From: a virus
Taxonomy: Duplodnaviria; Caudoviricetes
DNA: 64,000 bases
Virus record (IMG/VR): IMGVR_UViG_2931680285_000001
Coordinates: 31,011-95,010 of that record
Direction: 5' to 3' (one strand)
A program made the position numbers and the translations under genes. Every line of letters starts with the position of its first letter. Position 1 is the first letter of the stretch. Shown one piece after another: positions 22,301 to 52,309 of the stretch. The notes beneath the pieces were generated by a model. The model did not search any database. It saw only the letters and a program-made list of their open reading frames with translations, and was not told the origin of the DNA.

Positions 22301-25300
22301 ATGGCGTGTTCCAGGTGTGGATGGATGGCCGCAAGATCGGCCACGTCCGCCTCGTCGGCGGGAGCGCGGCCAAGGATTCCACCTGGGACAGCAGCCCCTC
22401 TCTCGTCCTTGGTGACGGTGGCATCACCCGTGCCGCGTCGAGGGACTTGGCCGTCGCTGCGCTCGTCGTGCGGGCTCTGCGTACTCCGGTCAGCGCTACC
22501 GACCCGAACGGGGACATCTGGGCGACCGTCAGGATGGATCTCGCCGGGCACTATCCGGAGCTTCCGGAGCTGCCCGCGCGGCTGGCCAAGGACCCGGCAG
22601 TGCGGGAGCGTTACGAGGGGATCGTCCAGCTCGTCGCGAACTTCCGCACCAGCGAGTTGGTCAGCGGCGACCTGCGCCAGGACATCGACCACGCCAAGGG
22701 CGAGTTCGAATGGCTGAGGGACGTCTTGTCCACGCTTCCGGCCAAGCAGCAGAACCGTGACGTGCTCAGGGATCTGGACCGGCGCGTTCTCCTGGCTTCA
22801 TGGCTCCGTGAGAGTCTGCCTCCCGAGGACCGCGATGAGGCGGGCCGCGCGCCCGACGGCCCCGGGGAGCCGGGCACCTCCCCGAGTAGCACGGACTTCC
22901 CCGGAGAGACTACGGGCACTTCGCCGACGGACTCTGACGCCCCTGCCGGCGACATCGGCGAGCAGCGCCACCCGTCCGCTGACAGGACAGGTCGCAGCCG
23001 TCCCGAAGCGGAGCAGGGAACCACGCCCGAAGCGGCGCGCGAGGAGAGCGGTCAGGACGCGCGTGCCCGCCAGGACGACGAGGCCGAGGATAGGACGGGG
23101 GGCTCGGAAGCGAAGCCCGCCGCCGATCCCGTGTCGAAGCCTGACGAGACCGAGGACCCGGGGGCCCGGCCCGAGCCGAGCGTCGAGCCGGAGCCGGTCG
23201 GTGGTCAGCCCGCTCATTGGGCCAGCATCGACCACCTGGCCCCAGGCGACATGGCTCGTATCGACGGGACCACCCGGCGCGGTCGTGCCACCACGCTCGC
23301 CGGGTACGTGCTCGACTATCCGGAGCGGGTCACTGTGACCCGCCGGGGCCGCACCGAGGAGATGTGGCGCATCCGGATCGGCGAGTCCCCGGACAGCCTT
23401 TCCGGCTCCCGCAGTACCGTCTACACGCCGCTCACTGCCACGGCTGCCCGCGCCGAGGCGCCCGAGTCGTCCGCGCCGGGTACCCCAGTGAGCGGCGCCC
23501 AGGGCGAGGTCGCCAGCGGCGATCTTCCGGACCGTATCGCCACCGACTCCACCGGGGCGGGTCTCTTCCCCGGCAGCCACGTAACCGGCGCCGATGGACG
23601 CGACGGCACGGTCACGGGCGTCACCGATACCACCGCCAATGTCCGGTGGTCTGACGGCGACACCGATACGGGCGTCGCACCGGCGTCCCTGACCGCTGAC
23701 GACGCGGACGACCGCCGCCCCGCCGGTTGGACCTCTACCGGCCAGCGGATTCGTCCGGGTCACCTCGTCGCTGACGACGGCGCGCTCCTCGGCCCCGTGG
23801 ACGAGGCCGACGGAGATCGCATCACGGTCACCACCGCTGACGGCACGGTCACCCGCGATGCCTCGCGCCTGAGCGTGGTCGGCGAAGTCCGCGACGAGAC
23901 CCCGCAAGAGGCGCCGGTCACAAGCGTCACCCCGCACACGGCTGGGGACACCTCCAAGGGCGACGTCATCGTCCTCGACCTCGACGGCTCCCTGATCACG
24001 GTGGAAGTCCGGGACGCGGACCGGGACGGCGACCGGGTCACCCTCGACTACGTCGACATCGCGACGGGCGAGCTCGGCGGTATCGAGATGGACGCCGCCA
24101 CCGTCATCTCGAAGGCCGAAGGCCCCGACGGCAGCACCCCGGCATTCAGCAACACCGTGCCGGAGGCCGAGGGCGACTTGACCGTGCACGAGCCGCCCGC
24201 CGTCCTCGACCCCGTCGCCGGTCCGACCGTCGATCCGGACCTCACGCCGGCAGACCGAGACGTGATCGCCGACCACGGCTCCGCGCCGGAGGACGACCCC
24301 GACGCGCAGCAGGCCGTCGCCCGTATCGGGGCCGATCTGCCTGTGACGGACACCCAGGCCAGCGCGCTTGCCGCCCAGCTCCGGGCCAACGGCAACCCCG
24401 CTACCCGAGACGGACGGGCGGCGCTGCGCGCCGCTGACCACCTGGACCCGGACAACGCTCCGGAAGGACTCGACCGTCCCCGGCCGTCCACCGCCGCCCA
24501 GGTCGGCGAAGGCGACGTCATCGCAATACCCGACGAGCGTCGCGACAACGAGGTCCGCACCTACCGCGTCCTCGACGTCGAGGAGGCTCCCGGCGGCATG
24601 CGGAGTCTCTTGCTGGAGGACGAGGACCGGCAGTGGAAGCGTCGCATGGTCCCCGCCAGCATGCCCGTGTGGCAGTTGCCGGAGCCCACCCGCGCCGACG
24701 ACAGCACCACCCCGGCCGCTACAGCACCGGAGACCCCTGCTCCGCGCGAGCCGAACCCCCCGCTGGCGTCTGTACGCCGCCAGATCATCGCCGAGCACGG
24801 CCGCATGATGGCCCTCCGCATCGTCGACGAGGCGGTGGCCGGCACGGAGCAGCCCGGGAGCGTCCACGCACTGCGCGAGCAGATCTCGCTTCGGCTCACG
24901 CCGGACGCTCTTCGCGATGCCCGCGAGCAGGCCCGCCGAGAAGCCGGCGCCGCGCTGGACGCCGCCGGGATCACGGGCCGGGACCGAGTTTCAGCTCAGC
25001 AGGCCCTTCGCCGTGCGCGGGACAAGGCTCACGACCGGACCGTCCGCGCCGCGCTCCGCACCATCAACGATCTCGAACCCCTCCCCGGTGAGCCTGACGA
25101 GGACCTGGCGCAGCGGGTCGCAGGTCTCCTCCGCCTCATCCCCGTCCCCGACGAGCCCGCGCCCGTCCGGCGCCGCAGCGCCCCGTCCGCGCCCGGCACC
25201 CGCGCCCAGGGCGGTGGGTCTTCGGAGGCGACGGGGCACGCCGATGACGCCGTGACGTCGCTGCTCCAGCACCTTCAGGACGGCGGCGTTGATCCGGCAG

Positions 25301-26646
25301 ACCTCGATGCGCTGGCCGCATACCTGGCGCGTCAGCTCGACAACGGCAGGCAGGGGACGGCAGAGCGGATCGTCCGCCGTGCCGCGCCGGATGCCTCGAA
25401 GCAGCCAGGACTCCTCGCCCGGGCCATGGGACTGCTCTGGCGCCTGGGCCGTCGGCTCGTCGAGCTGGTGAAGGCCGCGGCCCGGAAGATCGCCGAGCTG
25501 TGGCGCAGCAGCCGTGACCGTTTGTCCCGTCTTCGGGCCTTCCTGAACCGCATGGTGACCCGTGTACGGGACTGGCCCGAGTCCCGGCGTCTGGCCCGCC
25601 TCCATGCCGCGCTGGATCTGCCGGACGTCGAGGGTGACTCGCTGGCCTCCCGCGTGTTCCAGTGGGCCAACTTGCTTCCGGAACCCGGTCAGTTCGGCCG
25701 TAGGGAGCGCAGTGCGTCGTGGTGGAAGCCGACCACGTGGGCGCAGCTTGCCGCTGGTCGGCTGCCCGGCCGTGCCACCGGCCGCCGCTCCGCGCCCGAC
25801 CGGGCTTCCGACAACGGGCCGGGACTCGCCGCCCTGCGGCACCTCGCGGCCGTACGTGCTGCTGGCGCGGACGTCGACCGGGACGTGACCCGCCGCCTGT
25901 CCACCCTGCTGGGCGACGACTTCGGCGACGACCCGCACAGCACGCTCCAGCACGCGGACGACTACCTGACGGCCGCGGAGCACCGTCTGCTCAACCTTCA
26001 GGCGGCCCGGACCACGGCGCTGGACCCCGACGTCGAGGTAGAGATCGCTGCCGCGCGGATGGAGGTCGCCACCGCACGGCGCGAGTGGGAGGACCTGCGG
26101 CGCCAGTACGCCGCAGCGGTTCCCGAAGCGGTCGCCGGGGCGTTGGCCGGCATACGGGACCTCGGCCCTGAGGGCACGGCGGGGTTCGTGTTCGGTCCCG
26201 ACACCGTTCCTGATGCCGAGCGCGCCGTCCGCAGGGTGCAGCGGCTTCTTCCTCGGGACTGGCTGAGCAATCCGGGTGTGCGACGTCTGACCGCGACCAG
26301 CGGAGACGGCGGCCAGTACGAGCCCGGCGTCGGCCGCGCCACGGTCGCTGACCTCGGAGACGAAGGCAACGGCACGGCCGCTCACGCTCTGGGACAGCAC
26401 CTGGTCGCGCACATCCCGGACCTGGAAATGGCGGCGCAGATGTACTGGTTCACGCGGACGCACTCGGGCCGCCCCGGTGCCCGCGTCCGCAACGCCTCGG
26501 GGCTCAGCCGTCTCCTGGCCGAGCAGCAGACGCAGAGGACCACGGGTGACACCATCGCTCGCTCGATGCAGGCCATGTTCACCGGGGACTGGTACGAGGA
26601 CGACGACTTGAGGGCGTTCCTCCTTGGCCTGCTGGCCACCCGATAG
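10336..26646 (+). CDS. Giant (5436 aa) polyvalent DarB-like protein: N6-adenine DNA methyltransferase + SNF2-type helicase with long N- and C-terminal extensions
   Basis: MTase motifs VLEAGSGSG (~14932) and IGNVPF (~15115); helicase motifs HEVGLGKT (~16993), VDEAH (~17494), ATGTP, EQRNGRILRYGN; N-terminal WNSALHPRDSKGRF. Confidence 0.85.
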   Translation: MLMRTAPTDLSRTLEAKSVRRPWNSALHPRDSKGRFIETGGIARLWSGNLARVVRALPRDRVLVQDRASDGTYTGRRHSTSAKWITMVARPDGSAPTANQKKVEQEDARRGADDRRGLGLSRDDHGDPDTPDEPHDVDDEGNAIGDDEGDAPEDDDQDEPEDGTHDVDTDTLPNRQALPGSRFTDTAAVRRHFLELAEQPGTNSAALRRLAGDEDLQITPTGGLVTTRDDANGRWYLTATGTGGYLDVGDFSSRSEAEAAADSIHENVRNGHIMPGEFNQPIDFSDPKIGTWLQDWRSTKGEGAEQAIRRAVSDFRASRHKEGSASRPKPVRQAAQPRGRFTTLQQARDNWARRAADLRASGSEQDRAAARALDELIKEPRLKLVGDGQFVTHRVDGDWYLHATGTGQQMGWWFDKQADAKGFADHIVGTLKGKDGKPLDFSDPAFADYRGTWRSDKGRDYHQEWTAARALWDQEHPPKHSIATDRLAETLRRPPFGDQPTPDDKDEQSAPPSPAPGNDSENDVPGTDSGQSEPGPAGEQPEPEQAPDPEEAPEESDDRPAGVPADAEPVDGVPGYWATSWNPGPVTVYGPDGSRIASVEGGYSDRHATVDGVRLPIGGHLTIADQIIARHHLATTDPSQADRVHLAWTMHKTKRVVAVRGTVKDDPTDDRAVNAAGKLAWSPVQSARITGTQWKPETRDRKAADILAAFVRQGRNVRFTDETTRKSDAPEPSQPLDEEDKKLRVMSETDLREHRTNLQFHAQTARSPRSKQQALNSVRKVEAELERRRAVAEDGEQKTPQERAAALSDVDLAQAISNSERERGTYGSRRGDKLNDDERALYADRRRRSTERISRVAAPQDLDDDALTSYIQDLDRLKRAHDPGGSTHEEDDLAPERDLWDDVSSRLDDALKEQSERQLRQIEQRPPVQDLDDEALEAEAARLPVRLPKLDEEQNKILSARRRAVYEERQNRKAGVYRRRPEPSGLEDGDLVKEFRELQKNRNLTSGAEREALEERRRAIFDEQNRRGAKGHEETVRRAETREDPLNAHYNISVRVDGNSYGEVSYHETGSTWAGGPKAGWNAKTDRYGGGLGSFPSMVEALAALVENYDTDPNTEPVRLYGRTHQVWVPKMFFELYQSSRRADSFPSATKERQTLYGRFKGHGYGWSDRTNPITGKIGKGAVLEIPEGLLAEFQRVTEELSREMMLRSTDRELDSSDRSKARTRLAAINAALHGIDAARTNVRKDGGDDDRKVISAKEIEAQQAALRAALSTDERAEDEHLQPGGQGPLDEASAQGTGADGRPGEVLPEQGQGDRDGDSGGRGGAGEDRAGGDGVRAAGGSAQADQGDRDRDGAAGPAAGARAGDRGAADPHAGDAGSAGDEGRGVRHVGRFRPDPADAATRGPVQRAAANVEAIRVLKRLEQENRPATEQEKRTLARWSGWGSVPIMFASEPNEKEPRYQQGGARFGKFTQDHARWAEYTDLRAMLSNELTPLEWQQARRGTLSMHYTPQGIAEAMWDGLKALGFERGDVLEAGSGSGTFFGVSPQDARLTGVELDPTTARIAKAIYPDVNVLNENFAETDAPAGTFDASIGNVPFAAVPFGDKRYPSESLHNGFVTKELALTRPGGVTLLITSRHTLDSKGDKARKQIAKYGDLIGAVRLPSGVFSDAGTSVVADVLVLRRRADGQEPGDTSWLNAPERKVGDTREHVNAYFAQHPEHILGDLTTESSPYGPRLTVKGDPGKAADQLRDALRDIAEKAKEDGRGYEPHPDGDDRLPIHLQTAREKHANDWTGRLYEGDDGQLYQHVNGGNPVVVEPSDGQADQLRALMQLRDVAAELRVLDRKREEDERAEKLRAQLRDLHTSYVQQYGPLSKPGQFRSMKTGVREDGTEERTPTAWGYFRSDPDAGSVLALERWDADKQEPVLSRVFTERAAARRQPLDQTDDPKTALSAVVAATGEVDLGEIARLLNTDPQDALRALGTEVFTDPVTGRLELAGAYLSGPVRDKLADARRAAERDPAFQVNVAALEAVQPTDRTIGEFTPEMGAHWTPPELLQGFLREYLGDKTLRVAHDDRYGWMLYTGQVPKANNVLHGVAANEEKGTKGKGAVDIARAILGHGSLTIYRDDKRRDVDEETSRLVRQKADQMRSEFAKYATANADRLTRLTNSYNTIMNGHVVRSYDGMSPSLDGFTPDRDPHPWQLSGAARMQFERSVILAHEVGLGKTSTLVMGTQALKGSGQIEKPFAVVPDHLAQQWYDEARYLYPNAEIHLITSADLADGRRDSTLEWLRANKPDLVIFTEPAFGSIKMSPEAQEEYEFRELEALREQLDRQYEDATNPNHPFIVAKIEQRIATVQNKISKNAAPMRTPGATYWDDLGFDYAVVDEAHRYKGVGFRSREGGGDPASIRGVDLHQKLTDLHRRRAGRATVTLATGTPLSNSITEQYTMLALAAPWVLDSYKAGAPDLWAATFGRKTLRVENAPDGSGLRVVERFSEFHNRRAMKTMWGLVADTKRADDVGIPRPKIRGGQPNLVMVDPTKDQTARLKKLVARGRAIHNGEVDRSQDNMLAVSNEGTSVALDPRLVDAKAPAGKKLAAVAARHVERYHQHKDRVYKTHYGSTEDHPVPGALQMIFLNEGVPGGNNRGDFDAYAELKRLMVQGGIPADKIAFVQDAKKSGKPEHLAELFRRARDGEVSVLIGSSSVAGTGMNAQNRMVSLTHVDLDWGAAQMEQRNGRILRYGNQNDEVEVDIFATKGSLDGWKAGFVASKAEGLVDIQRPEMADSDTRDTVTELDVDYPDYETMEAEIGGNPYMSQLMKARRQLRDLEIDQHNEAAERVRRAEALAELEQETADTRAGITRREAALPRIRDVRGTFSMAIGGMPYTERADAAAALHRQVTTQLLDHAHEGVSPWKTVGQLGGLDVAVRTERRADGKLVAHVGFPDLARSSFERTPDDLKKRGAGSGMITRLANALEKAPALQEADRRRLPELDEQIALLQSAQTAADLTPQIEHARARANLLDDIVGRIADLDKLPEIDEDDLDKKLTETQRRKIVEERRTARVPLQGAVGAAVLTLEEFDKKFPEPERPERPRDRGQEQVRLPADEVAQVLDAIRPEEGGAGEKPTAPGDSDEESPQPLAEDLSEESQTAAGSGLIAGRFQFDEPVTDLDGQGWYVGSENDDGTVNVSNGPSSETFRPEELTSARQDAPSAPNVPEIAPEGPDDTVTLDRDDVEQQLEALRPAGDRAPSSMSEQEITDEIVSLMEREMLEGELTGADRTRMAVLEAENDRRAGRAPKAEPKKPTPDPVDDGGLFDVAAPAPQEPAAADPDNPLDQPDDLYGTPDMFADHEGRDTSRLRPVQMRSPENLSEGDRYTDADGRTHTVAEPPKRTGRGRVRIVTEGGEEHFYSRDAELRLRYPDEEIDDDAQDSNSRDASDEPAADDAQGGAPNSDESDESDESDEDERQGHRRRDGDPDGAAPADAPAGGSGGPSQPDVDQDEEDDSKNEEDGADSAENNEEDDERRRRRRRGNRRSDGRGPNGPGLPGLPGIPHLPDVDSRAPEDGGTASEGPSPRRAPRDVQGLRAAWRRGEGLIAEENTPERRAFLAQLADNPTLSLSSGGGIATWTDDTAPDGMRRWHFAQARNGGRFGGITLTARTADEARDLADLFEIITSAGGQQIDWHQPLTTSAVAGWSDRDGRTLPEALRHLRDLYQDGDEQEAGLVKPLITLPEDLTDWTDEDLADAWGAGLSPADQQRVTAEMDRRDDADQRVRDALPETPAADADEVRRRGEAMDAALGFSGADATRRPLTREERMQQEFADWDEARYQAAIEATNGYFYSKNSRRLPRVNERDLFSGGSLSRFGRWREYASEELIDWYDANGGRVTYNAFKAQRRAHEKIEREQYEEQRRNASPIPETSPASSSPSPAEGPRASDADTSSQIDVDDISLASASPGRESEEEGAARFGGPEQVRAFVERAQIREGGGDGVFQVWMDGRKIGHVRLVGGSAAKDSTWDSSPSLVLGDGGITRAASRDLAVAALVVRALRTPVSATDPNGDIWATVRMDLAGHYPELPELPARLAKDPAVRERYEGIVQLVANFRTSELVSGDLRQDIDHAKGEFEWLRDVLSTLPAKQQNRDVLRDLDRRVLLASWLRESLPPEDRDEAGRAPDGPGEPGTSPSSTDFPGETTGTSPTDSDAPAGDIGEQRHPSADRTGRSRPEAEQGTTPEAAREESGQDARARQDDEAEDRTGGSEAKPAADPVSKPDETEDPGARPEPSVEPEPVGGQPAHWASIDHLAPGDMARIDGTTRRGRATTLAGYVLDYPERVTVTRRGRTEEMWRIRIGESPDSLSGSRSTVYTPLTATAARAEAPESSAPGTPVSGAQGEVASGDLPDRIATDSTGAGLFPGSHVTGADGRDGTVTGVTDTTANVRWSDGDTDTGVAPASLTADDADDRRPAGWTSTGQRIRPGHLVADDGALLGPVDEADGDRITVTTADGTVTRDASRLSVVGEVRDETPQEAPVTSVTPHTAGDTSKGDVIVLDLDGSLITVEVRDADRDGDRVTLDYVDIATGELGGIEMDAATVISKAEGPDGSTPAFSNTVPEAEGDLTVHEPPAVLDPVAGPTVDPDLTPADRDVIADHGSAPEDDPDAQQAVARIGADLPVTDTQASALAAQLRANGNPATRDGRAALRAADHLDPDNAPEGLDRPRPSTAAQVGEGDVIAIPDERRDNEVRTYRVLDVEEAPGGMRSLLLEDEDRQWKRRMVPASMPVWQLPEPTRADDSTTPAATAPETPAPREPNPPLASVRRQIIAEHGRMMALRIVDEAVAGTEQPGSVHALREQISLRLTPDALRDAREQARREAGAALDAAGITGRDRVSAQQALRRARDKAHDRTVRAALRTINDLEPLPGEPDEDLAQRVAGLLRLIPVPDEPAPVRRRSAPSAPGTRAQGGGSSEATGHADDAVTSLLQHLQDGGVDPADLDALAAYLARQLDNGRQGTAERIVRRAAPDASKQPGLLARAMGLLWRLGRRLVELVKAAARKIAELWRSSRDRLSRLRAFLNRMVTRVRDWPESRRLARLHAALDLPDVEGDSLASRVFQWANLLPEPGQFGRRERSASWWKPTTWAQLAAGRLPGRATGRRSAPDRASDNGPGLAALRHLAAVRAAGADVDRDVTRRLSTLLGDDFGDDPHSTLQHADDYLTAAEHRLLNLQAARTTALDPDVEVEIAAARMEVATARREWEDLRRQYAAAVPEAVAGALAGIRDLGPEGTAGFVFGPDTVPDAERAVRRVQRLLPRDWLSNPGVRRLTATSGDGGQYEPGVGRATVADLGDEGNGTAAHALGQHLVAHIPDLEMAAQMYWFTRTHSGRPGARVRNASGLSRLLAEQQTQRTTGDTIARSMQAMFTGDWYEDDDLRAFLLGLLATR
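14171..14506 (+). CDS. Nested out-of-frame gene (111 aa, TnpV-like helical protein) inside the giant ORF
   Basis: +1 frame has near-uniform G/C third positions and reads MSIYSQVARDHWTKHLPRELAQMADPEKFF...YEQRAGQLRQIRATATEMVLRDLL; the host frame here is a G/R/A/D-rich linker. Confidence 0.65.
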   Translation: MSIYSQVARDHWTKHLPRELAQMADPEKFFLSKGREIETAILVAEEALEKTVPAATEYEQRAGQLRQIRATATEMVLRDLLPEPEPETEELPTLTPEMRDLLAMKDEVYDM

Positions 26647-28354: not shown

Positions 28355-30283
28355 GTGCCGACCGCGCCCGCGCCCCGCGCGCCTGCGTCACGTAAGGGCA
28401 TCTGCCGCGCCATTTTCGCCGTGACCGGAGTCGTCGACGAGGTCGCCGACTTGATCGTTCCGGGAGCTTTCGCGCACACCCTGGCGACCAGACCTGTGAA
28501 AACGGTTTGGCACCACGCGTGGACGGACCCCATCGGCGTGGTTCTGGAGATCACCGAGTGGCGACCGGGCGATGCGCGGTTCGCCTCGATTCCGAACTGG
28601 CCGGCGGAGGCCGGGGCGCTGGTCGCGACCATCCAGTTCAACCTGAGGACCCAGCGGGGCCGCGACGTCTACGAGCAGGTCCGCCAGTGGCACGAGCACG
28701 GCGAAGCCCAGTTCAGCATCGGCTACCGCGTGCCCCCGAGCGGAGCCACGAAGCGGTCGGACGGGGTTCGGGTGATCCACAAGCTCGACCTCTACGAGGT
28801 CTCCCCCGTCCTTCATGGCGCGCACCCGATGACCCGGTCCTTGGAGGTCAAGGCCGATGGTGGCGCCACGGAGTTGGAGCACAAGACGACAGCGGGCGGG
28901 CACCTCGACTTCAAGGCCGCCGAGCGGCAGGTTGGTCGCGGGGCGATGGTCGCGCTGTACGTGCCTGGCGAGATCGCGGGCAGGATCGCCCACCCGGACG
29001 GCACCTTTGCACGGGACCTGCACATCACGCTGGCCTATCTCGGCGACGCCGAGCGGCTTCCCGGCCACCCTGACGACCTCGCCGACCTCGTGGCCGCAGC
29101 CCTTGAAGGCGCGAGCCCCGTGGAGGGGAAGATCGGGGGGATCGGCCGGTTCCCGGACACGGGCGACGGCGAGCCGGTCTTCGTGCCGGTCGACGTGCCG
29201 GGGTTGGCGTCGCTGCGCCAGCGGATCGTGGACGCGATCGAGTCGTCCCCGCTCGCTTCCTCGCTGAACGTCGACCACGACTTCACGCCGCACATCACGC
29301 TCGGGTACGGCCTGCCGCTGGACACCGTGCCCACCCCGTCCATCCCGGTCGCCTTCGACACCGTGCACGTCGTACGAGGACCGGACTCGACTCCCATCCG
29401 CTTGCTCGGCCCTCTCACTGCCGATGCTCACACCGAGCCGACCGTGACAGAGCCACGTTTCGCCTCTCCGGCCCCAGCTGAGGAGAAGTCCGCGCACCAG
29501 GCCGTCCGCCAGGCTCTGGCTGCGCCCCGCTGGGCCCGCGCGAGCGCCCACGCCGCCGTCCTCGAAGCCAAGTCCCGTATCCCCACAGGAGTTCCCGTGT
29601 CGCCTCTCCAGCCTCTTCCCGCCTCCTACGAGGACATCCGCGAGCAGGTCAGCGATGCCGTCCACGGCCTGCTCGCCTCTGAGGACGGCACCTGGTGCTG
29701 CGTCGAGGCGACCTACCCGGACCGGGTCATCGTCTCCGTCCACCAGGGTGACTCGGGCGCTCGAACCTACGCCGTCCCGTACAGCATGTCCGGCACGGAG
29801 ATAGCCCTCGAAACGCCCCAGCCCGTCGCGCTGGCCACCGTGGTGATCCCCGACGAGGGATCGGTACGCCCTGCCGACAGCGCCGAGACAGCCGACAGCC
29901 TCCTCGTCCGCCCCACCCTGCGCGCGCTCGCGGAGGCGACCTCCCGCGTCCAGGCCGCGGACGCCTCTGAGCAACTGGAGCCCGTACGGGCCTCGGTGAG
30001 CAGCCTCCTCAGCGCCCTGTCCGCCAAGGGCCTCGACCTCACCGCCGAGGACGATGAGGAAGGCCCTGTCGGGGAACGGCTCCCCGCCAGCGGCTCGGCA
30101 GCCGTGGCCGGCAACGGCATCGACCTGTGGGACGACCCATACGACGAACCTCACGATGTCGACGAGGACGAGGACGAGTCCGAGAACGGCGACAACGCCG
30201 AGGAAGAGGTCGACGAGATGGGCGCGACCGTTCATCTCGACGCGACAGAGGTAAAGGCGCGCCTGGCCGCGATCCAGCTCTAG
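28355..30283 (+). CDS. HK97-type prohead protease fused to 2H phosphoesterase (2'-5' RNA ligase/Acb1-like) domain and acidic C-terminus
   Basis: VDEVADLIVPGAF, VWHH, PIG, FSIGY, LYEVSPV; two HxT motifs LHITLAYLG (29021) and FTPHITLGY (29291). Confidence 0.85.
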   Translation: MPTAPAPRAPASRKGICRAIFAVTGVVDEVADLIVPGAFAHTLATRPVKTVWHHAWTDPIGVVLEITEWRPGDARFASIPNWPAEAGALVATIQFNLRTQRGRDVYEQVRQWHEHGEAQFSIGYRVPPSGATKRSDGVRVIHKLDLYEVSPVLHGAHPMTRSLEVKADGGATELEHKTTAGGHLDFKAAERQVGRGAMVALYVPGEIAGRIAHPDGTFARDLHITLAYLGDAERLPGHPDDLADLVAAALEGASPVEGKIGGIGRFPDTGDGEPVFVPVDVPGLASLRQRIVDAIESSPLASSLNVDHDFTPHITLGYGLPLDTVPTPSIPVAFDTVHVVRGPDSTPIRLLGPLTADAHTEPTVTEPRFASPAPAEEKSAHQAVRQALAAPRWARASAHAAVLEAKSRIPTGVPVSPLQPLPASYEDIREQVSDAVHGLLASEDGTWCCVEATYPDRVIVSVHQGDSGARTYAVPYSMSGTEIALETPQPVALATVVIPDEGSVRPADSAETADSLLVRPTLRALAEATSRVQAADASEQLEPVRASVSSLLSALSAKGLDLTAEDDEEGPVGERLPASGSAAVAGNGIDLWDDPYDEPHDVDEDEDESENGDNAEEEVDEMGATVHLDATEVKARLAAIQL

Positions 30284-44639: not shown

Positions 44640-45617
44640 GTGGCGTGGGATTCCGTGCCGTGGTTCACCGAAGGCGGCGCCGAGCACTCCAGCGAAGTGG
44701 CTAGGCTGCTGGCCTACGCCGCATTCGCCGGCGGGGAGGGCATCGTCGGTTCGGGTGACCTTCAGGTCCGGGCGCTCTCGTCGCCCGCGGCTGCGGTGAA
44801 CGTCTACCCGGGGGCGTGCGCGATCCTAAACAGGGCGCCGGGCGGCCGGTATCAGGCGTACGCCGCGCGTCTCCCGAGCGCGGACCAGGTGCCGGTTGCC
44901 GCGACCGGCGCAGCCAAACGCTCCGATCTGGTGGTGGCCCGGATCGAGAACCCGTATTCGGCCGGAGAGACGTGGCCGCTGCCCGGAGACCCAACGGTCG
45001 GCCCGTACATCTACACCCGGATCGTCTCGAACGTTCCAGCGACGACCACGAGCGTCCGGCAAGTCCGTCCCAACGACTCGTCGATCACCCTCGCTCGCAT
45101 CGACATCCCCGCGAACACGTCCTCCATCACCCAGGCGATGATCAAGGACCTGCGCGAGATGGTGGCTCCCCGCGCTCGGCGACGTCTCTACACGTCCTCG
45201 CCGAGCGGAGACCAGAACTGGGCCGGCAACAGCAAGGGACAGTGGGTCGCGTGGCCGCCGGCCGCCCGCTGGACGGTCGAGGTGCCGCCCTGGGCGACGA
45301 AAGCCCGGATCATGCTCACGGTCGCGGGGGTGCAGGTGATGCGCGGCGGCGTATGGGGCTCGTCGGCGTGGAAGCTCGGCTCGCTCCAGGGCGAGTCGGT
45401 CACGCTCGACACCGGCGCCGGAGACGGCTCCCAGCGCATCCACCTGATCTCGGCTGACACCATCTCCATCCCCTCGTCCATGAGGGGAACGGTCCAGACC
45501 CTGTCCGGGATGATCTCGCTCGACGACGACAACGCTGGCGTCTTGCAGGCCGACGTCGCCACGACCTGTGTGCTCGACGTCGACTGGGCGGAGGACCCGA
45601 CCGAGGACGAAACCTGA
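44640..45617 (+). CDS. minor tail protein
   Basis: RSDLVVARIENP, LARIDIPANTSSITQAMIKDLR pattern seen in actinophage minor tail proteins. Confidence 0.75.
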   Translation: MAWDSVPWFTEGGAEHSSEVARLLAYAAFAGGEGIVGSGDLQVRALSSPAAAVNVYPGACAILNRAPGGRYQAYAARLPSADQVPVAATGAAKRSDLVVARIENPYSAGETWPLPGDPTVGPYIYTRIVSNVPATTTSVRQVRPNDSSITLARIDIPANTSSITQAMIKDLREMVAPRARRRLYTSSPSGDQNWAGNSKGQWVAWPPAARWTVEVPPWATKARIMLTVAGVQVMRGGVWGSSAWKLGSLQGESVTLDTGAGDGSQRIHLISADTISIPSSMRGTVQTLSGMISLDDDNAGVLQADVATTCVLDVDWAEDPTEDET

Positions 45618-46813
45618 TGGCCTGGCGGTACATCGCGCAGCGCGCGCTGCCGGAGGCGATCCTCGACTGGGATGTGCCCCTCAGCCTGTCCTCGAACCCG
45701 AGGAGAGAGCTGTCCGGCCCCGGTTCGCTCACCGGCACCATCGAGCCGGAGTACGCCCGAATGCGAGGTGCGGACGGGCAGCCGATCCTCCAGGAATGGG
45801 CGACGAAGCTGTACCTCGAAGTCGACGGGCATATCCGCTGGGGCGGCATCGTCACGAAGACGAGCTACGAAGGCTCGAAGGCAACCATCCAGGCCGAAGG
45901 GCTGTCCTGCTACCCGCACGGCATCCCGTACGAGAGCTACATGATCTCCGGGCAGCTCATCACCCCGAAAGACCCTTTTGCCGGAAAAGATAAAAACCAT
46001 GACGGCTGGGTCGACGGCAAGAAAGGAACCCAACGCGTTCCTCCGCCACCAAAGCCCTATGGCGGTCCGCGAATTGACGCATTCGACGCCTTCCGGAACA
46101 TCTGGGCGCACGTCCAAAGCCGCCCGTACGGGAACATCGGCCTCACCATCGACCAGCACGACCACGGCGAGAAACTCGGTGCCGCAGACGGAAGTTCACC
46201 GTGGGAGCTGGCGTGGTGGGACAACCCCGACTGCGGCTCCACGCTCGACACCCTCACTCGCACCATCCCCTTTGACTGGCGCGAGGACCATTCCTGGGCC
46301 ACCTCGGACGGCAACGAGATCTCACACCGCCTCCGCCTCGGCCGACCCCGCCTCGGCGGGAAGCGGCACGACCTGCGGTTCGCCGGCGACGAGAACATAG
46401 TCGCCATCGCCCGGCCGGAAGGCATGGGAGACGACTACGCCAACGAAGTCGTAGTCCTAGGCCGCGGTGAGGGTCGCAAGATGGCCCGCGCGCAGATCGC
46501 GCGTTTCGACGGACGACTCCGCCGAGTCACCACGGTCACCGACAAGACGCTGGTCTCCCCCACCGCGCTCCGCCGACGGGGCGAACTGGAGCTTGCTGGA
46601 CGGACAAAGGCCCTTCAGATTCCGTCCATCCAGATCGTCGACCACCCCAACGCGAGGTTCGGCTCCTGGGCACTCGGTGACGACATCCGCGTGCAGGTCC
46701 ACGTCCCCTGGGTCGGTGACCTCGACGTCTGGCACCGGATCGTCGCCGACGAGATCAGCGCCGACGGCACCGTCACCTTGACCCTCCGCCGTTCCGACTC
46801 CTTCCACTACTGA
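45617..46813 (+). CDS. minor tail / hub protein (Gp37-like)
   Basis: LSGPGSL, IRWGGIV, YANEVVVLGRGEG, LGDDIRV. Confidence 0.75.
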   Translation: MAWRYIAQRALPEAILDWDVPLSLSSNPRRELSGPGSLTGTIEPEYARMRGADGQPILQEWATKLYLEVDGHIRWGGIVTKTSYEGSKATIQAEGLSCYPHGIPYESYMISGQLITPKDPFAGKDKNHDGWVDGKKGTQRVPPPPKPYGGPRIDAFDAFRNIWAHVQSRPYGNIGLTIDQHDHGEKLGAADGSSPWELAWWDNPDCGSTLDTLTRTIPFDWREDHSWATSDGNEISHRLRLGRPRLGGKRHDLRFAGDENIVAIARPEGMGDDYANEVVVLGRGEGRKMARAQIARFDGRLRRVTTVTDKTLVSPTALRRRGELELAGRTKALQIPSIQIVDHPNARFGSWALGDDIRVQVHVPWVGDLDVWHRIVADEISADGTVTLTLRRSDSFHY

Positions 46814-48312
46814 GTTCCAACGACCTCCGGCACCCTCTGGTCCAGCGCGTCTCGGACGAGGCCGCGCAGCCGCCTCCTCTCCGCCTCCACCCGAGCCCTC
46901 TGCTCGTGGTTCAAGAGGCTGTTCCGCGCCATCAGGACGTCGTCGATCTCGACGAGGAGAGCTTCCCGTAGATCGACGAGGGCCCCGGCGCGGTCTTCGG
47001 TGAGCACCACCTCCGCCCACTCTCCCGACAGGTCGCGCAGGAGCGCGGGCGCGTGCGGCCTGCCTGTAACCCTCGCGTGCAGCTCAGCCAACTCGGACCT
47101 GACCCTGGCGACGCCGCTCGCCATCTTGTCCAAAACGGCCCGCTCCTCCACGCGAGCGAGCTCACCGGCAACGCCGAGCGGCGCGTGCTGGACATGGACC
47201 CCTTGGAGAAGGGACTTCTTCGGGTCGGTGTGGGTGACGTGCGCGAGGGTCGCGGTGACCACTTGCTCAGGCAAGAGGACTCCGCGTTCGCACGCTGCCA
47301 GGACATGGTCGAGAGCCGCGCAGTGCCCGAAGTTGGTGAGCAGTTTGGCCGCCGCCCCGACACGCTCGCTGCCGTGAGATGCCACAACGCTGACGGGGAA
47401 CAGCTTCCCCGGTTTCATGGACCTCCCGGGCTTCTGCTGTCGAATCCAGGCGGTCATGGGGTCGATCTCGGCAATTTCGTCCCAGGTCCTCTGGACTGAC
47501 CGGTCTCCTGGGTAGAACCCGACCTTGCGCACGGCGCCGTCCGGTCCGGGGAAGAGTCGGACACGGCGGCTGGGCCAGGTGAGCAGATCCAAGCGCCCCG
47601 TGATCGGCCGCGCAGCGTGCGCGGGACCAGGGCTGGGCCGCTCCCAGGCTGGCGTGTCGCCGGGTGTCCGGGGAGCAGGCGGCAGCGAGAGCAGCAGCAT
47701 GTCCTTGACCGTGCCGGAAATCGTGAAGTGCGCGTGGGTGACCTGCGCGAGCATCCCCACCCGGTTTCCGGCCTTCCCGCGCGGGTCGTCGGGATGCGGG
47801 GTCTTCATGCCGGCGACGTCGTACCCGAGCATGACGAGGGCGGCGAGGAAGGCGTGGACGGGGGTCATGGGCGGGTGCTCGTCCACACCTCGCGCGAGTC
47901 GCCCATCGAAGAAGCCGCCCCCGCGTCCATAGCGGGAGATGTTGAGCACGCCGACGCTTTGAGTCGGTCGGGTCACGGCAGCGCACTGGAGGAACGGGTA
48001 CTCCGGGTGGAAGACGTCGAACCTGTCCTGCCACTGCTCGAAGTAGGCCAGGATGGGCGCGGTGTCCAAGGCGGGTGCCGTCCAGGCCCGATCCCACTGC
48101 GCCGTCGTGGTCGGTCCGGCGGCAGCGTCGTAGAGGGCAGCGATCAGCCGGAAGACGACCACTCCTTCCAGACCGCTGTGGGCGAGGTGAAGTTCCTCGG
48201 CCCGGTCGAACAGCTCGATCAGTCCGACCTCGCGAGCCTCGCCCGACCGCAGGTCCATCACGCTGATCCAAGGGTGAGTAAGCAGGTCCAGTTCCTGCCG
48301 TCCGCCGGTCAT
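46807..48312 (-). CDS. cas8e: Type I-E Cascade large subunit Cas8e (Cse1/CasA), orphan
   Basis: DLLTHPWISV, VGLIELF, FRLIAAL, DRFDVFHPEYPFLQ, YDVAGMKT..DDPR, LLLSL, DTPAWER, RLDLLTWPSRRVRL, DPMTAW: ordered actinobacterial Cse1 motifs. Confidence 0.88.
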   Translation of the reverse strand: MTGGRQELDLLTHPWISVMDLRSGEAREVGLIELFDRAEELHLAHSGLEGVVVFRLIAALYDAAAGPTTTAQWDRAWTAPALDTAPILAYFEQWQDRFDVFHPEYPFLQCAAVTRPTQSVGVLNISRYGRGGGFFDGRLARGVDEHPPMTPVHAFLAALVMLGYDVAGMKTPHPDDPRGKAGNRVGMLAQVTHAHFTISGTVKDMLLLSLPPAPRTPGDTPAWERPSPGPAHAARPITGRLDLLTWPSRRVRLFPGPDGAVRKVGFYPGDRSVQRTWDEIAEIDPMTAWIRQQKPGRSMKPGKLFPVSVVASHGSERVGAAAKLLTNFGHCAALDHVLAACERGVLLPEQVVTATLAHVTHTDPKKSLLQGVHVQHAPLGVAGELARVEERAVLDKMASGVARVRSELAELHARVTGRPHAPALLRDLSGEWAEVVLTEDRAGALVDLREALLVEIDDVLMARNSLLNHEQRARVEAERRRLRGLVRDALDQRVPEVVGTQ

Positions 48313-48638
48313 CCGTTCACATCCGCTTCCTGGTCCTCCAGGTCACGACGCTCGGCCAGGACGCGCTCGATGCCCTCCTCGGCCTCCGCGCGTAGGTGCT
48401 CCAGGACGTGCTCCTGGCTGAAGTTCTCGTCGAGGGCGTTCCACTGGGCTTCCACGCCGTCATCGGCGGAAGCCCCCAGCAGATCGACCAGGGCCTCCTG
48501 GCGGAGCACGATATTGGCGTGCCCTGCGTGAGCCGCAGGGCCGACGGTCAGACGTTCGTCCTCGTCGACGTAGAGCACAGGATCTTCTGCTGGCGAAGCG
48601 ACAAGAGCCGCGAGAGCCGCAATCGTGAGCTTGGGCAT
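48309..48638 (-). CDS. small highly acidic protein (109 aa), coupled to cas8e
   Basis: GGGAGG RBS; MPKLTIAAL...; ATGA overlap with cas8e start. Confidence 0.75.
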   Translation of the reverse strand: MPKLTIAALAALVASPAEDPVLYVDEDERLTVGPAAHAGHANIVLRQEALVDLLGASADDGVEAQWNALDENFSQEHVLEHLRAEAEEGIERVLAERRDLEDQEADVNG

Positions 48639-48715
48639 CGTGTGGGTGGTTCCTCCCTCTGCGGTGGGCGACGCACCACGAACTGGGGCATCGACAGGCC
48701 GCCTGGGCATCCACC

Positions 48716-48771
48716 AGGCGCATCCCCACACACGCGGGGAGCAGCAGAATCCCCGCGTGCGCGGGGAGGAA
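48716..48771 (-). CRISPR. two abutting type I-E CRISPR-like repeats with no spacer
   Basis: minus strand TTCCTCCCCGCGCACGCGGGGATTCTG (48771-48745) then CTGCTCCCCGCGTGTGTGGGGATGCGCCT (48744-48716); 27-nt period; 7-bp stems with 4-nt loops. Confidence 0.75.
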
Positions 48772-48862
48772 TCACAAGCCGATCGTACGGCCAAGGCCAG
48801 GTCGTGCGCCAGGAATCCGGATCGCCATCACCCCATGGGGACGCTGCCGCCCCAGGGCCGAC

Positions 48863-48894
48863 ACGCGACGCTAAGAACACCTCCTGTGCATGGT
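48863..48894 (+). promoter_or_regulatory. bipartite promoter-like motif copy
   Basis: ACGCGACGCTAA-N14-CATGGT, ATG 7 nt later. Confidence 0.7.
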
Positions 48895-48901
48895 CCGCAG
48901 C

Positions 48902-51900
48902 ATGGTGAAGATCCTCGACCCCGGGCCTGGTGGAGACCTGGCACGGCTCCTTGCCTCGTACGACAAGCGGCTCCAGGCGCTGGAACGGACGTCGCAGGCC
49001 GCGTACTCCTCCATCGAGGGCGGCTCGATGGACATCTACGACGAGACCGGCGAGCTGCGCGGCTCGGTCGGCGTCCAGCCAGACGGCGGCGTCGCCCTGG
49101 TCGCCGTGAACACCCCGCCGCCGCCGACCCCGACGCCCCCGTCGGTGGAGCCGGTCCTCGCCGGACTCGTCGTCGGGTGGGACGGCCAGTGGGACGACTC
49201 CTACACCACCCCGACGGACTTCTCGCTCGTCCAGGTCCACATCGGACCGTCGCCTGACTTCCTCCCGGACCTGAGTACCCACGTCGCGACGATCACGGCG
49301 CCCCTCGGCGGTACCGTCACCATCGCAGTCGACGGCTACACCCCTGTGTGGGTGCGGCTGATGGCAGCGAATACGGCGACGACCACAGGCCCGGCATCAG
49401 CGGCCGTGCAGGGAACCCCTCGACAGGCCGTCGAGCAGGACCTGATCGACGGCATCGTCACCGAGACGAAGCTGGCCCGGGACGCGGTCACCGAGACGAA
49501 GATCGCGCTGGGAGCGGTCGGGGCCACTGCTCTGGCGGCCGGCGCTGTTCTGGAGGACAAGCTCGCCAAGGCCGCCGTCACCCTGGACAAGATCGCCAAG
49601 GGTGCGGTGACCATGAACGCCTTGGGCGGGTCACTCGCCGACGGCGTGACCCAGAGGTACGTCGACGCGATGGCCGACCCCGCGGCGTGGCAGGTCCTCA
49701 ACCAGGCACCCGGAGCCCAGTTCGAGCACCTGCCCCTGGCGGATGCTCCGACGGGCCAGAGCGTCGGCCGCGCGACCGGGTACCTGGTGGTTCGCGGCAC
49801 CGTGCAGATCCCGTACGACCCCGATGTCCTGTACCGGATATCCGCCAGGGCCCGCACCACCAGCGGCTCAGCATCGGGCACCGACGCCCTGTACGTGGGC
49901 GCGCTCGGCATCGCCGCCGACGGAGTCACCCTCGTTTCCCGCCACGGGGCCAATACGTACAGCTCAGCCCACTACGTAGCCGCCTCGAACACGGTCCAAC
50001 CCGTCGGGGGTAACTGGACCACCTACATCGGCTACCTGCGTGGACGCGCGGCTCCCGACGGCCTCGGAACGCCTGGCGTCGCAGCCGATCCGCGTGCCCC
50101 TGGCGTTGTGCACGACGCCGTACGGTTCATCTCGCCGATCCTGTACCTGAACTACGGCAGCGGACAGTCCAGCGCCAGCGGCGTGATGGAGCTCGACGCC
50201 GTCACGGTCGAAGTCCTCAAGACCGGCGTGGTGGACTCGACGAACCTGGTCGTCGGATCGGTGACGACGGCAGCACTCGCCACCGATGCGGTCACGGCCG
50301 GGAAGATCGCTGCGGACGCGATCGGGGCCCGGGAGATCCAGGCCGGTGCCGTCACCGCCTTCGAATTGGCTGCCGGGTCCGTCTCTGCCGAGAAGCTGAC
50401 CGCGCTCGCCGTGACCGCCGACAAGATCGCGGCCAACGCGGTGACGGCCGAAAAGCTGACCGCCTTGTCGGTGACGGCCGAAAAGCTGGCTGCCCTGTCG
50501 GTGACGGCCGAGAAGATCGCGGCGTTGTCGGTGACGTCGGACAAGCTGGCCGCGAACTCGGTGGTGGCCTCCAAGATCTCTGCGGGCGCGATCGAAGCCA
50601 CCCACGTCAAGGCCGGAGCACTCACGGCCGATCGGCTCGCGCTCGGTGCTGACGGGAACATCATCGCCGACCCGGGCTTCGAGGGCGCCGTCACCGATCA
50701 GCGTGTGGCCACGGCCGCGAACTGGTCGATCACGACGGGGAACAACTCGCCGCGCGCCGTTAGGGTCGACGCGATCAGCGCGACCGCCGCTACCCGGGCG
50801 CTCACGCTTGCCGACCTGCCCGCGGTCCCCAACCAGCGGATGTGGTTCGGCGTCGACTATCTCGCCTCCGCCGACTGGGCCGGGTCCAGGATCAGCATCT
50901 ACGCCGAATGGCTCGGCGCAGATAGCGCGGTCATCGGCACGAGCGTCGTGACCACAGGCGACGGTGCCGCCGTACGCGGCACGTGGCAGCGCCTCACAGG
51001 AGTACCCGCAGAGGCCGCGCCTGCGAACACGACCCGGGTCCGCATCCGTATCGCGTCCGTCTCAGGGACAGCCGGTGGTGTCGCCTTCGACAACGTCTCC
51101 GCCCGCGTCGTGGTCTCCAGCGGAGCGGCTGGAGCTCGCGCGGAACTCTCTCCGCAGGGCCTTCAACTCTTCGACGACGCAGGCGACGAGGCCGTCGCCC
51201 TCATGACGGGTCGGCCCAACTACCTGTCGCTGTCCAACGGTGGCGTCGCTGTGGCCACGATCGACGAGACCGGCAACGCAGGATTCGGTGACCTCGCCGT
51301 GGCCGGCAAGCTCACCATCGGCGGTGACCCGATCGAACAGCACCTGACCCTGGGAGCCCGAGGCCTCGTCGCAATCGACTACCAGGCGAGCGCCGTCTCT
51401 GCCAGCACTACGGACTACGGCTTCGTGGAGCTCGCCTTCGAAGCCGAGGGCCCTCGCATGTACCGGGTGGTACTCGACTGCTACGCCGACCCGAGCGTGG
51501 CCGGCGGTGAACTCGTCCTCACGTTGCGGGATGGCGGCGCCTCGACGCCAACGATCTCGTCGAACCAGATCCAGTCCGCGATCTACCCCATCGCGGGGGC
51601 CGGGTATCACCGTGTTCGTCTGGAGACCGTCCGGTCCGGCTGGTCATTCGGTGTCGGACTGCGGCGGCTGCTCACCACGTTTCGTGTCCAGTCCGGCCCG
51701 GCGGGGCAGACCGTCCGGCTGTTCGGTGGCTCGAACCACCCGGGGGTCTTCTACATAGAGGACGTCGGACCGTACATCCCGGAGACCGGCCAGTACAACA
51801 CGGGCGGCGGCACGGCCACTCCTCCGGTTCAGCGGTACGTCAAGACGTACCCGGCCACGTGGTCGGGGTCCTACGCCAACCGCAGCTCGTACAACAGCTA

Positions 51901-52309
51901 CTACGGCAACAAAGCCATGCAGGGCTACTACAGCTCCACCAACGGAATGCAATCGAGCCTCATCGGCTTCTCCTCCGCGCTCGCCACGGATCTGACCGGC
52001 GCCACGATCAACAAAGCGGAGATTTACCTCTATTTCGACCATTGGTACAGCAACGCGGGTGGCAAGGCGGTCATCAAGGCCCACAAGCACACCAGCCGTC
52101 CGTCAACGTTCTCCTGCGACGCCGAGGCCATGACCGTCGACTGGGGCAAGAACGTCGGCAAATGGGTGGATATAACCGGCGTGTTCGACAGCACGAGCTG
52201 GCGAGGTATCGCCCTCGACCCCAACAACTCCAGCACCACGTACTACGGCCGCGCCCGCGGCTACGGCGAGACCTACCCGCCTCAACTGCGGGTCACCTAC
52301 ACCAAGTGA
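48902..52309 (+). CDS. tail fiber / host-specificity protein
   Basis: N-terminal FN3-like region, 10-aa VTAEKLAALS repeats, carbohydrate-binding-like domains, C-terminal PQLRVTY. Confidence 0.8.
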   Translation: MVKILDPGPGGDLARLLASYDKRLQALERTSQAAYSSIEGGSMDIYDETGELRGSVGVQPDGGVALVAVNTPPPPTPTPPSVEPVLAGLVVGWDGQWDDSYTTPTDFSLVQVHIGPSPDFLPDLSTHVATITAPLGGTVTIAVDGYTPVWVRLMAANTATTTGPASAAVQGTPRQAVEQDLIDGIVTETKLARDAVTETKIALGAVGATALAAGAVLEDKLAKAAVTLDKIAKGAVTMNALGGSLADGVTQRYVDAMADPAAWQVLNQAPGAQFEHLPLADAPTGQSVGRATGYLVVRGTVQIPYDPDVLYRISARARTTSGSASGTDALYVGALGIAADGVTLVSRHGANTYSSAHYVAASNTVQPVGGNWTTYIGYLRGRAAPDGLGTPGVAADPRAPGVVHDAVRFISPILYLNYGSGQSSASGVMELDAVTVEVLKTGVVDSTNLVVGSVTTAALATDAVTAGKIAADAIGAREIQAGAVTAFELAAGSVSAEKLTALAVTADKIAANAVTAEKLTALSVTAEKLAALSVTAEKIAALSVTSDKLAANSVVASKISAGAIEATHVKAGALTADRLALGADGNIIADPGFEGAVTDQRVATAANWSITTGNNSPRAVRVDAISATAATRALTLADLPAVPNQRMWFGVDYLASADWAGSRISIYAEWLGADSAVIGTSVVTTGDGAAVRGTWQRLTGVPAEAAPANTTRVRIRIASVSGTAGGVAFDNVSARVVVSSGAAGARAELSPQGLQLFDDAGDEAVALMTGRPNYLSLSNGGVAVATIDETGNAGFGDLAVAGKLTIGGDPIEQHLTLGARGLVAIDYQASAVSASTTDYGFVELAFEAEGPRMYRVVLDCYADPSVAGGELVLTLRDGGASTPTISSNQIQSAIYPIAGAGYHRVRLETVRSGWSFGVGLRRLLTTFRVQSGPAGQTVRLFGGSNHPGVFYIEDVGPYIPETGQYNTGGGTATPPVQRYVKTYPATWSGSYANRSSYNSYYGNKAMQGYYSSTNGMQSSLIGFSSALATDLTGATINKAEIYLYFDHWYSNAGGKAVIKAHKHTSRPSTFSCDAEAMTVDWGKNVGKWVDITGVFDSTSWRGIALDPNNSSTTYYGRARGYGETYPPQLRVTYTK
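50260..50640 (+). repeat. 30-bp (10-aa) tandem coding repeats
   Basis: GTGACGGCCGA(A/G)AAG repeated at 30-nt period. Confidence 0.8.

Follow-up and report, generated by a model that had tools for sequence, protein, structure and literature searches.

We analysed a stretch of 64,000 nucleotides (nt) of viral DNA, referred to below as the window (Duplodnaviria; Caudoviricetes; IMG/VR record IMGVR_UViG_2931680285_000001, positions 31,011 to 95,010). On its minus strand, at 48771-48716, the window carries two copies of a type I-E repeat of the kind found in CRISPR arrays, which follow one another at a 27-nt period with zero spacer. The pair lies in the leader of a two-gene cassette that encodes a small acidic protein and an orphan homologue of the CRISPR-associated (Cas) protein Cas8e, or Cse1, and the cassette sits among the tail genes of a prophage. 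This spacerless repeat pair is a real feature of CRISPR origin and exceeds what chance would produce.

Repeat 1 (minus strand, 48743-48771) reads TTC-CTCCCCGCGCACGCGGGGAT-TCTG. Its 20-nt core, CTCCCCGCGCACGCGGGGAT (48768-48749), is the same as that of array repeats in congeneric genomes, from which repeat 1 departs in its first 3 nt and its last 6 nt. Repeat 2 (minus strand, 48716-48744), CTG-CTCCCCGCGTGTGTGGGGAT-GCGCCT, follows directly; it is a full-length copy of the I-E repeat and agrees with the genus consensus at 22 of 29 positions. The 29-mer equivalents of the two copies (48771-48743 and 48744-48716) overlap by 2 nt. The stem of repeat 1 is perfect (TCCCCGC/GCGGGGA), and that of repeat 2 (TCCCCGC/GTGGGGA) contains one G:U pair. 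Four transitions separate the two cores, three in the loop (GCAC to GTGT) and one that turns a G-C pair into the G:U pair, and all four are compatible with the hairpin. A third hairpin, CGCCTGG-TGGATGC-CCAGGCG (minus strand, 48700-48720), overlaps the handle-like 3' end of repeat 2. A preliminary description of this DNA, made from the letters and a list of open reading frames (ORFs), had given the 27-nt period, both stems and the third hairpin followed by a ribosome-binding site, and all of these are correct on re-reading. The span that it assigned to the tandem repeats, 48690-48771, does contain them but is too long, as the repeats stop at 48716 and the remainder is the third hairpin and what lies beyond.

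The assignment to type I-E, also proposed there, is borne out by core identity with congeners and by model scores, which further place the pair in the sense orientation of a CRISPR RNA (crRNA) on the strand of the cassette. When one mismatch is allowed, 124 of 400 congeneric genomes contain the 20-mer of repeat 1, for the most part within arrays that have a 61-nt period, compared with 1 of 401 in the backward control. Exact arrays of this period that contain the core were read in genomes G054 and G209, and the arrays of these two together with those of G115 and G285 give the consensus CTGCTCCCCGCGCACGCGGGGATGGTCCC, a Streptomyces-type I-E repeat. In a scan of the window with a covariance model trained on 14 bona fide actinobacterial I-E array repeats, repeat 1 ranked first (26.3 bits, E = 4e-5, model positions 5-23, minus strand) and repeat 2 second (23.1 bits, E = 4e-4, model positions 1-29, minus strand). 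On the plus strand the pair scored 17 and 14 bits, and the next-best site elsewhere in the window reached 13 bits.

The hallmark of the I-E repeat, a 7-base-pair (bp) stem with a 4-nt loop in a CUCCCC...GGGGAU core, is seen at 20 of 20 core positions in repeat 1 and, with the hairpin, at 16 of 20 in repeat 2. The GTGT loop is a natural variant: G072 has it in its arrays, and G061, G285 and G310 have it in solitary copies. The part of the repeat that would supply the 8-nt 5' handle is not kept: against the genus consensus ATGGTCCC, repeat 1 has ATTCTGCT (4 of 8 positions) and repeat 2 has ATGCGCCT (5 of 8). Both copies therefore combine an intact hairpin and GGGG/AU cleavage junction with a degenerate handle. 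The 61-nt period and spacers of about 32 nt that mark a CRISPR array or mini-array are absent from the pair, whose period is 27 nt. A search of Rfam returned no match at the gathering threshold and, in E-value mode, chance matches only (E of at least 2.3). The exact core of repeat 2 was also seen as a solitary copy in G319 (L225:4038-4063, G319:C19), where the canonical CTG and ATGG flank it and the contig is chromosomal and 2 Mb long.

The leader, together with the divergent intergenic region, occupies 48639-48889 (minus strand) between the cassette and a tail-fibre gene. The 156 nt upstream of the ATG of the acidic ORF are open in frame, but GC content at the second codon position (GC2, 0.79) is higher than at the third (GC3, 0.67), which marks the leader as non-coding. 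Translation of the repeats from a TTG at 48794, in an open frame of 161 amino acids (aa), was dropped because codon-position GC there is of the non-coding type. The ribosome-binding site of the acidic ORF, GGGAGGA, is read at 48651-48657 (minus strand). The ORF itself (minus strand, 48309-48638, ATG at 48638) encodes a protein of 109 aa with an isoelectric point of 4.2 and 25 Asp/Glu versus 7 Lys/Arg residues; it has a weak match to phrog_23596, and its best scores in Protein Atlas, 0.81-0.84, are leads only. An ATGA overlap couples it to the cas8e gene (minus strand, 46807-48312), whose 501-aa product matches PF09481 (1.1e-43) and TIGR02547 (80.4 bits, cut-off 70). An AlphaFold model of this protein (predicted local distance difference test score 76, predicted template modelling score 0.81) gave whole-length matches to Cse1 structures in Foldseek, with 4h3t at the top (E = 3e-21, template modelling score 0.73), followed by 3wvo and 4an8. 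By profile match and predicted fold, then, the cassette encodes a true full-length Cas8e, which is about 35% identical to canonical Cas8e. The placement of the repeats in the leader of an acidic ORF/cas8e operon, as first described, thus stands. A profile search of the cassette proteins identified no DNA-binding regulator.

PHROG matches identify the surroundings as a siphovirus-type prophage with a head protease, major head protein, tape measure, distal tail protein, two minor tail proteins and tail fibre, all on the plus strand. The cassette, on the opposite strand, is flanked by the last of the minor tail genes (45617-46813) on one side and by the fibre gene (48890-52309) on the other. A homologue of that minor tail gene is present in Streptomyces phage Gilgamesh, where 54 nt separate it from the structural gene that comes next. 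Because these tail genes are adjacent in Gilgamesh, the cassette is an insertion, that is, a moron.

Genuine, sense-oriented repeats in the leader of the acidic ORF/Cas8e operon make an RNA anti-CRISPR (Racr)-like decoy the closest known reading, and on this point the preliminary description was right. Racrs are viral solitary repeat units that bind Cas6 and Cas7 and block the assembly of Cascade (PMC10651486); two of type I-E, RacrIE1 and RacrIE2, have been validated (Camara-Wilpert et al. 2023, PMC10651486). The sections of that report considered here describe the stem-loop as essential and changes in the handle as tolerated, and note that Racr candidates cluster with anti-CRISPR (acr) genes, one of them being co-transcribed with acrIC5. 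We tentatively favour, as an explanation that may well be correct but is far from secure, that the doublet is a Racr-like tandem RNA decoy, a phage mimic of the I-E repeat of the genus, co-transcribed with two candidate protein inhibitors. The doublet would be transcribed as the 5' leader of the moron operon for the acidic protein and the orphan Cas8e. In a type I-E host, Cas6e would bind, cleave each hairpin at its 3' base and remain attached; every transcript would in this way capture two Cas6e molecules and free one 27-nt spacerless 'crRNA' unable to guide. The acidic protein and Cas8e, made from the same mRNA, may add interference at the protein level. For the doublet itself, it is from sequence and predicted structure that we infer transcription, binding and cleavage by Cas6e, and inhibition.

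Several observations support such a decoy: (i) The core is that of array repeats. (ii) The covariance model scores the minus strand highest. (iii) The cleavage junction is kept and the change lies in the handle, where Racrs tolerate it. (iv) The doublet came with a moron insertion. (v) Racrs cluster with acr genes. (vi) In the plus-strand version, C.A mismatches take the place of the G:U pairs present in repeat 2 and in a helix between the two repeats (see below), and the predicted stability falls to -33.0 from -39.1 kcal/mol; this weaker fold and the model scores both point to minus-strand RNA. (vii) I-E-like repeats also lie beside an orphan cas8e in G061. (viii) A nearly identical leader was recovered from a root-metagenome run of another study, as a 249-nt contig that spans 48595-48843 with four differences, one of them a C-to-U change in the loop of repeat 1; this contig is too short and too similar to inform on selection.

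The resemblance to Racrs is close but incomplete. Like them, the repeat mimic in the window matches a known repeat, is intergenic in a mobile element (here a prophage), keeps the hairpin with a degenerate handle and adjoins candidate anti-CRISPR genes; no usable cas effector genes are adjacent, the orphan cas8e being the only cas gene detected in the genome. Unlike them, it consists of two spacerless copies, in an mRNA leader rather than a stand-alone small RNA, next to a whole Cas8e gene and in a host without the cognate system. By the rule of the SRUFinder program, solitary units have no other repeat, full or partial, within 100 bp, and here the second copy begins 27 nt after the first. Since a partial repeat that close leads SRUFinder to drop a candidate (PMC10651486), the doublet form could not have been counted in the Racr search. 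The pairing of acrIC5 with racrIC1 is similar in that a repeat mimic and protein genes would share one transcription unit, as we infer for the window. It differs in that there the repeat comes after the acr gene, 11 nt downstream (PMC10651486), whereas the repeats in the window are upstream. A search of full-text literature returned nothing relevant on the orphan or phage Cas8e clade, nor on spacerless repeats.

A number of results, from scores and folding to host and conservation, weigh against the decoy. The two copies score 23-26 bits, below most array repeats in other genomes (28-49 bits), and thus resemble degenerate or terminal repeats. The 171-nt leader is predicted to fold at -85.9 kcal/mol (z = -3.06 relative to shuffles), and in this fold repeat 1 and repeat 2 pair with each other as an 18-bp helix (-39.1 kcal/mol) rather than as two local hairpins (-26.7 kcal/mol). 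The inter-repeat helix is more stable by 12.4 kcal/mol, with a pair probability of 0.999, and the hairpins of the type that Cas6e recognises have an equilibrium probability of about 4e-8. Two of the transitions in repeat 2 close the central mismatches that identical repeats would be expected to leave in this helix, and the other two keep wobble pairs. Racrs are expected to have a promoter within 250 bp and to be expressed as RNA; a scan for sigma-70-type promoters, which does not cover Streptomyces promoters, found 0 sites in the leader. Among 274 unique spacers (320 in total) from the fetched arrays, a small sample, none targets the window, the best match being 18 contiguous nt of 32.

The genome around the window (8.75 Mb, 72.7% GC, 99.99% complete) contributes further points on the same side. 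It has one Cse1 match, which is the window's own gene, and no Cas6e, Cas7e, Cas5e, Cas11, Cas3, Cas1 or Cas2 was detectable in it by Pfam and tblastn searches. The Pfam searches may lack sensitivity, an E. coli control having given no signal for Cas7e or Cas6e, and a tblastn search was therefore added, for which two canonical operons, L011 and L012, supplied the ORFs. Of these ORFs only those of cas8e match, and what they match is the gene in the window. Genes of I-E operons usually stand in the order cas3, cas8e, cas11, cas7, cas5, cas6e, cas1, cas2; the ORFs of L011 and L012 were labelled by their size and by this order, which we take to hold for them. No further I-E-like repeat was found anywhere in the genome. 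Without detectable I-E machinery in the lysogen, the leader cannot be processed in this cell. The host Cas6e on which the preliminary description had relied is therefore not detectable in the genome that carries the prophage, and the presence of the cognate CRISPR-Cas subtype in the host, expected of a Racr, does not apply to this lysogen. In the genus as a whole type I-E is common: 93 of 400 genomes have Cas8e, and 124 of 400 have the repeats.

Conservation likewise counts against the decoy. At 14 of 15 other homologous cas8e loci no repeat reaches 20 bits, and only G061 has I-E-like repeats nearby. Absence of the repeats beside homologous orphan cas8e genes had been put forward at the outset as a result that would refute the proposal, and the count of 1 in 15 largely agrees with that result; the 15 loci are distant homologues (34-44% identity), and the two closest proteins, P0002 and P0003 (50-51%), are outside the count. 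A loose doublet pattern picked out 118 stretches in IMG/VR, and none of the 80 loci listed for it is a true doublet; a stricter pattern gave 0, and the 23-mer across the junction between the repeats had 0 matches in metagenome contigs. Eight IMG/VR contigs do contain the exact 20-mer, near which one or more further I-E-like repeat copies stand at spacings that are normal or reduced. No relative of the Cas8e-like protein was found in IMG/VR or in the metagenome contigs, and the GenBank phage collection gave two weak matches (24-26% identity). Comparison of the cassette DNA with 60 relatives returned no match to the leader.

The Cas8e of the cassette belongs to a clade whose members are 34-51% identical to it and lie on mobile DNA in the contexts checked. 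Besides the window (46807-48312), the clade was seen at L002-L010, L187-L189 and L208-L210, on Streptomyces linear plasmids and in a prophage. At L003 the neighbouring genes encode ParA, ParB and a helicase, and within 7 kb of the clade cas8e no second cas gene is annotated on the linear plasmids from S. anulatus, S. clavuligerus (pSCL3) or S. californicus. Orphan status was checked for L003 and L208-L210, none of which has another cas gene close by, and for L187 in part. A module of about 45 aa (consensus ...YTLxQLAxHPxCVVxYPTLRxRV...EEAATTPG), which has no Pfam match, occurs one to three times at the C terminus of most members; the protein in the window lacks it. A small ORF always lies upstream of the clade cas8e, and in L002, L003 and L208 it is homologous to the acidic ORF of the window.

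Repeats of several kinds occur around these genes. Directly after the orphan-clade cas8e of G061 (L187:11695-11837) there are three hairpin repeats at a 62-nt period, each with a CTCCGCGC(G/A)AGCGGAG hairpin whose stem shows a double change from C-G to U-A, and the 'spacers' between them resemble one another. A solitary I-E repeat (24.6 bits; L187:12812-12840) follows 1.2 kb downstream of this cas8e, right after the next small ORF. In L002 (about 2060-2110) and L003 (about 9430-9480), the leader of the small ORF and cas8e-like gene contains an inverted repeat (TTTTAAGAA...TTCTTAAAA / GAGTTTTAAGAAT...GACTTCTTAAAACTCG) at the place where the window has its CRISPR repeats, and this inverted repeat is likely an operator. 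About 6 kb upstream of the orphan-clade cas8e at L006 lies an array of 37-nt repeats with a 73-74-nt period (L006:3394-3900), which is not of type I-E.

The doublet could instead be a passenger or relic that has no CRISPR-related function and was gained by recombination as a piece of a CRISPR array, which may have been a short-period irregularity. We consider this doubtful, though it deserves serious attention. Compact doublets, defined as two hairpins with 5-20 nt between them, occur in 14 of 400 other congeners, compared with 3 of 401 in the control. When the covariance model was run on 10 of these 14 genomes, seven doublets proved to belong to a long array, either within it or at its edge, two were mini-arrays of three to four repeats ending in a pair with a 33-nt period, and one was an inverted pair; loci L190, L192, L193, L197, L205 and L207 had been left out before scoring because they lacked I-E flanks by eye or were duplicates. 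In G103 (L200, about 1496-1580), four I-E hairpins with a 21-nt period stand within an otherwise regular 61-nt array, which indicates that spacerless units can arise within arrays. Such irregularities in bacterial I-E arrays (G103, G338 and G237) are like the doublet in having at least two repeat hairpins at a 21-33-nt period, but they lie inside long arrays beside cas genes, whereas the pair in the window is isolated, in a prophage, and in a genome without an array. The 14 of 15 homologous loci without repeats and the degenerate handles are also as expected of a relic. On the other side, the 20-nt core is perfect even though the adjacent Cas8e has diverged to about 35% identity with the canonical protein, so that repeats and Cas8e did not decay together; moreover, the doublet is in sense orientation and exactly in the leader, and the four core differences of repeat 2 keep its hairpin.

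A second alternative is that the leader responds to Cas6e: a cut by the Cas6e of the host would remove the structured 5' part and alter the stability or translation of the cassette mRNA, and the operon would in this way sense I-E immunity. Consistent with this, the repeats stand in cis upstream of coding genes, the leader is unusually structured (z = -3.06), and the minimum-energy fold joins UUCCU, which lies immediately 5' of repeat 1, to AGGAA in the ribosome site. Ensemble folding, however, gave a mean unpaired probability of 0.39-0.49 for GGGAGGAA at the ribosome site with six different 5' ends, including cuts after repeat 1 and after repeat 2, and the leader is not conserved. We therefore regard a Cas6e-responsive leader as unlikely. 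In the form of a switch at the ribosome site, which the preliminary description had also raised and which we modelled, the idea finds no support in folding, since accessibility is the same with or without the repeats.

It is improbable, too, that the doublet serves simply as a long RNA hairpin, in which the 18-bp helix would stabilise the 5' end, provide a site for RNase III or block transcription, and would owe its CRISPR-like character to descent only. The stability of the helix (-39.1 kcal/mol) and its pair probability are in keeping with such a role, as are the transitions of repeat 2 that close two central mismatches and otherwise keep wobbles. Three of the four changes, however, fall in the loop, the variable part of natural repeats, and GTGT is itself a natural loop, so that no special selection is needed to account for them; nor does a U-tract follow the helix. 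As a candidate in its own right, an intrinsic terminator was rejected, with 0 terminator-like sites in 46600-49100.

A crRNA-like guide of the Cracr or CreR type, in which the handle of repeat 2 and the following ~32 nt would load the Cascade of the host and direct it to a promoter, was part of the original proposal and is now largely refuted; we hold it to be very improbable. The repeats do share with Cracr, CreR and CreA elements that they are phage-borne (viral I-E Cracr arrays have been described; 10.1101/2024.10.29.618823), multi-repeat, of type I-E and non-canonically spaced, and the handle ATGCGCCT keeps 5 of 8 consensus positions. Cracrs, however, have spacer-like segments of 21-24 nt that match cas promoters, and are recognised, in the parts of the preprint that set out the definition, by a spacer-like segment with at least 9 PAM-proximal (protospacer-adjacent-motif-proximal) matches to a cas or creT promoter or a CreR spacer (10.1101/2024.10.29.618823). 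In the window there is no segment between the repeats, no repeat downstream of repeat 2 and no match above chance level in the canonical cas8e loci, and the pair is therefore not a Cracr. Searched against the whole genome, the 32-mer after the handle of repeat 2 matched only itself, the next best being 18 of 19 (E = 0.13). In 23 canonical cas8e loci (88.7 kb), the 24 nt after the handle gave 5 sites with at least 15 of 20 scored positions, which is the level of shuffled sequences (1-13 sites in 20 shuffles).

Three of these 23 canonical Streptomyces cas8e loci contain CreR-like mini-arrays (L025:844-923, L027:805-880 and L028:786-861, on the minus strand of each), which consist of two repeat-like units with a conserved spacer of 20 nt, AGCCTTAGGGGCGT..., between them; the mini-arrays are antisense to cas8e and lie about 650 nt upstream of it. 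Their existence speaks for a guide, but the leader shares at most 6 nt with their spacers. An IMG/VR contig, L180:4114-4241, has three I-E repeats at a 49-50-nt period with spacers of about 20 nt and resembles the published viral Cracr arrays.

Least credible of all is a pair of DNA operators, in which the palindromic repeats would bind a dimeric repressor of divergent promoters; it draws on the inverted repeats at the equivalent leader position in L002 and L003, but exact identity to a CRISPR repeat would be unexpected of an operator, and the cassette has no gene for a DNA-binding regulator.

The Racr-like decoy may also be one part of something larger, namely a single Cas-derived counter-defence module made of leader, acidic protein and orphan Cas8e and armed by the Cas6e cut of the host. 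This we put forward as a speculative and rather unlikely extension. Cas6e, in cutting the leader, would become caught on two dead-end hairpins, and the same cut would free the mRNA for a dominant-negative Cas8e that poisons Cascade. A known system to compare on the protein side is AcrIF3, a mimic of a domain of Cas8f (review PMC11656645). It too is a large-subunit-like protein from a mobile element, but the protein in the window differs in being a full-length Cas8e recognisable by sequence, with a putative role, and not a small structural mimic. The same 2024 review contrasts repeat RNAs with Cas proteins, of which it says that they 'apparently were not' enlisted as inhibitors by viruses, and it calls this an enigma (PMC11656645). 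If the module exists, it would be the first instance in which a mobile element has recruited an entire Cas effector subunit, and repeat RNA with it, for use as an anti-CRISPR.

If the doublet is active as a Racr-like decoy, viral repeat mimics would also exist as spacerless multimers in mRNA leaders. The published Racr search excludes this form and the Cracr search requires spacer matches, so that both censuses may undercount it; the supplementary tables of the two studies may list Streptomyces I-E candidates. An RNA decoy would then be tied to an orphan Cas8e clade of Streptomyces prophages and linear plasmids, which bears on why mobile elements have seemed not to recruit Cas proteins (PMC11656645). 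If the doublet is inactive, it would be a small example of array fragments moving into phages.

Two further observations concern the prophage outside the cassette. A single open frame of 5436 aa, with a coding-type GC3 of 0.88, occupies 10336-26646 of the window, upstream of the prophage head genes. At 28355-30283 lies a gene for a 642-aa protein of fusion-like appearance, whose N-terminal part resembles head maturation protease PHROGs and whose middle resembles PHROGs annotated as RNA ligase.

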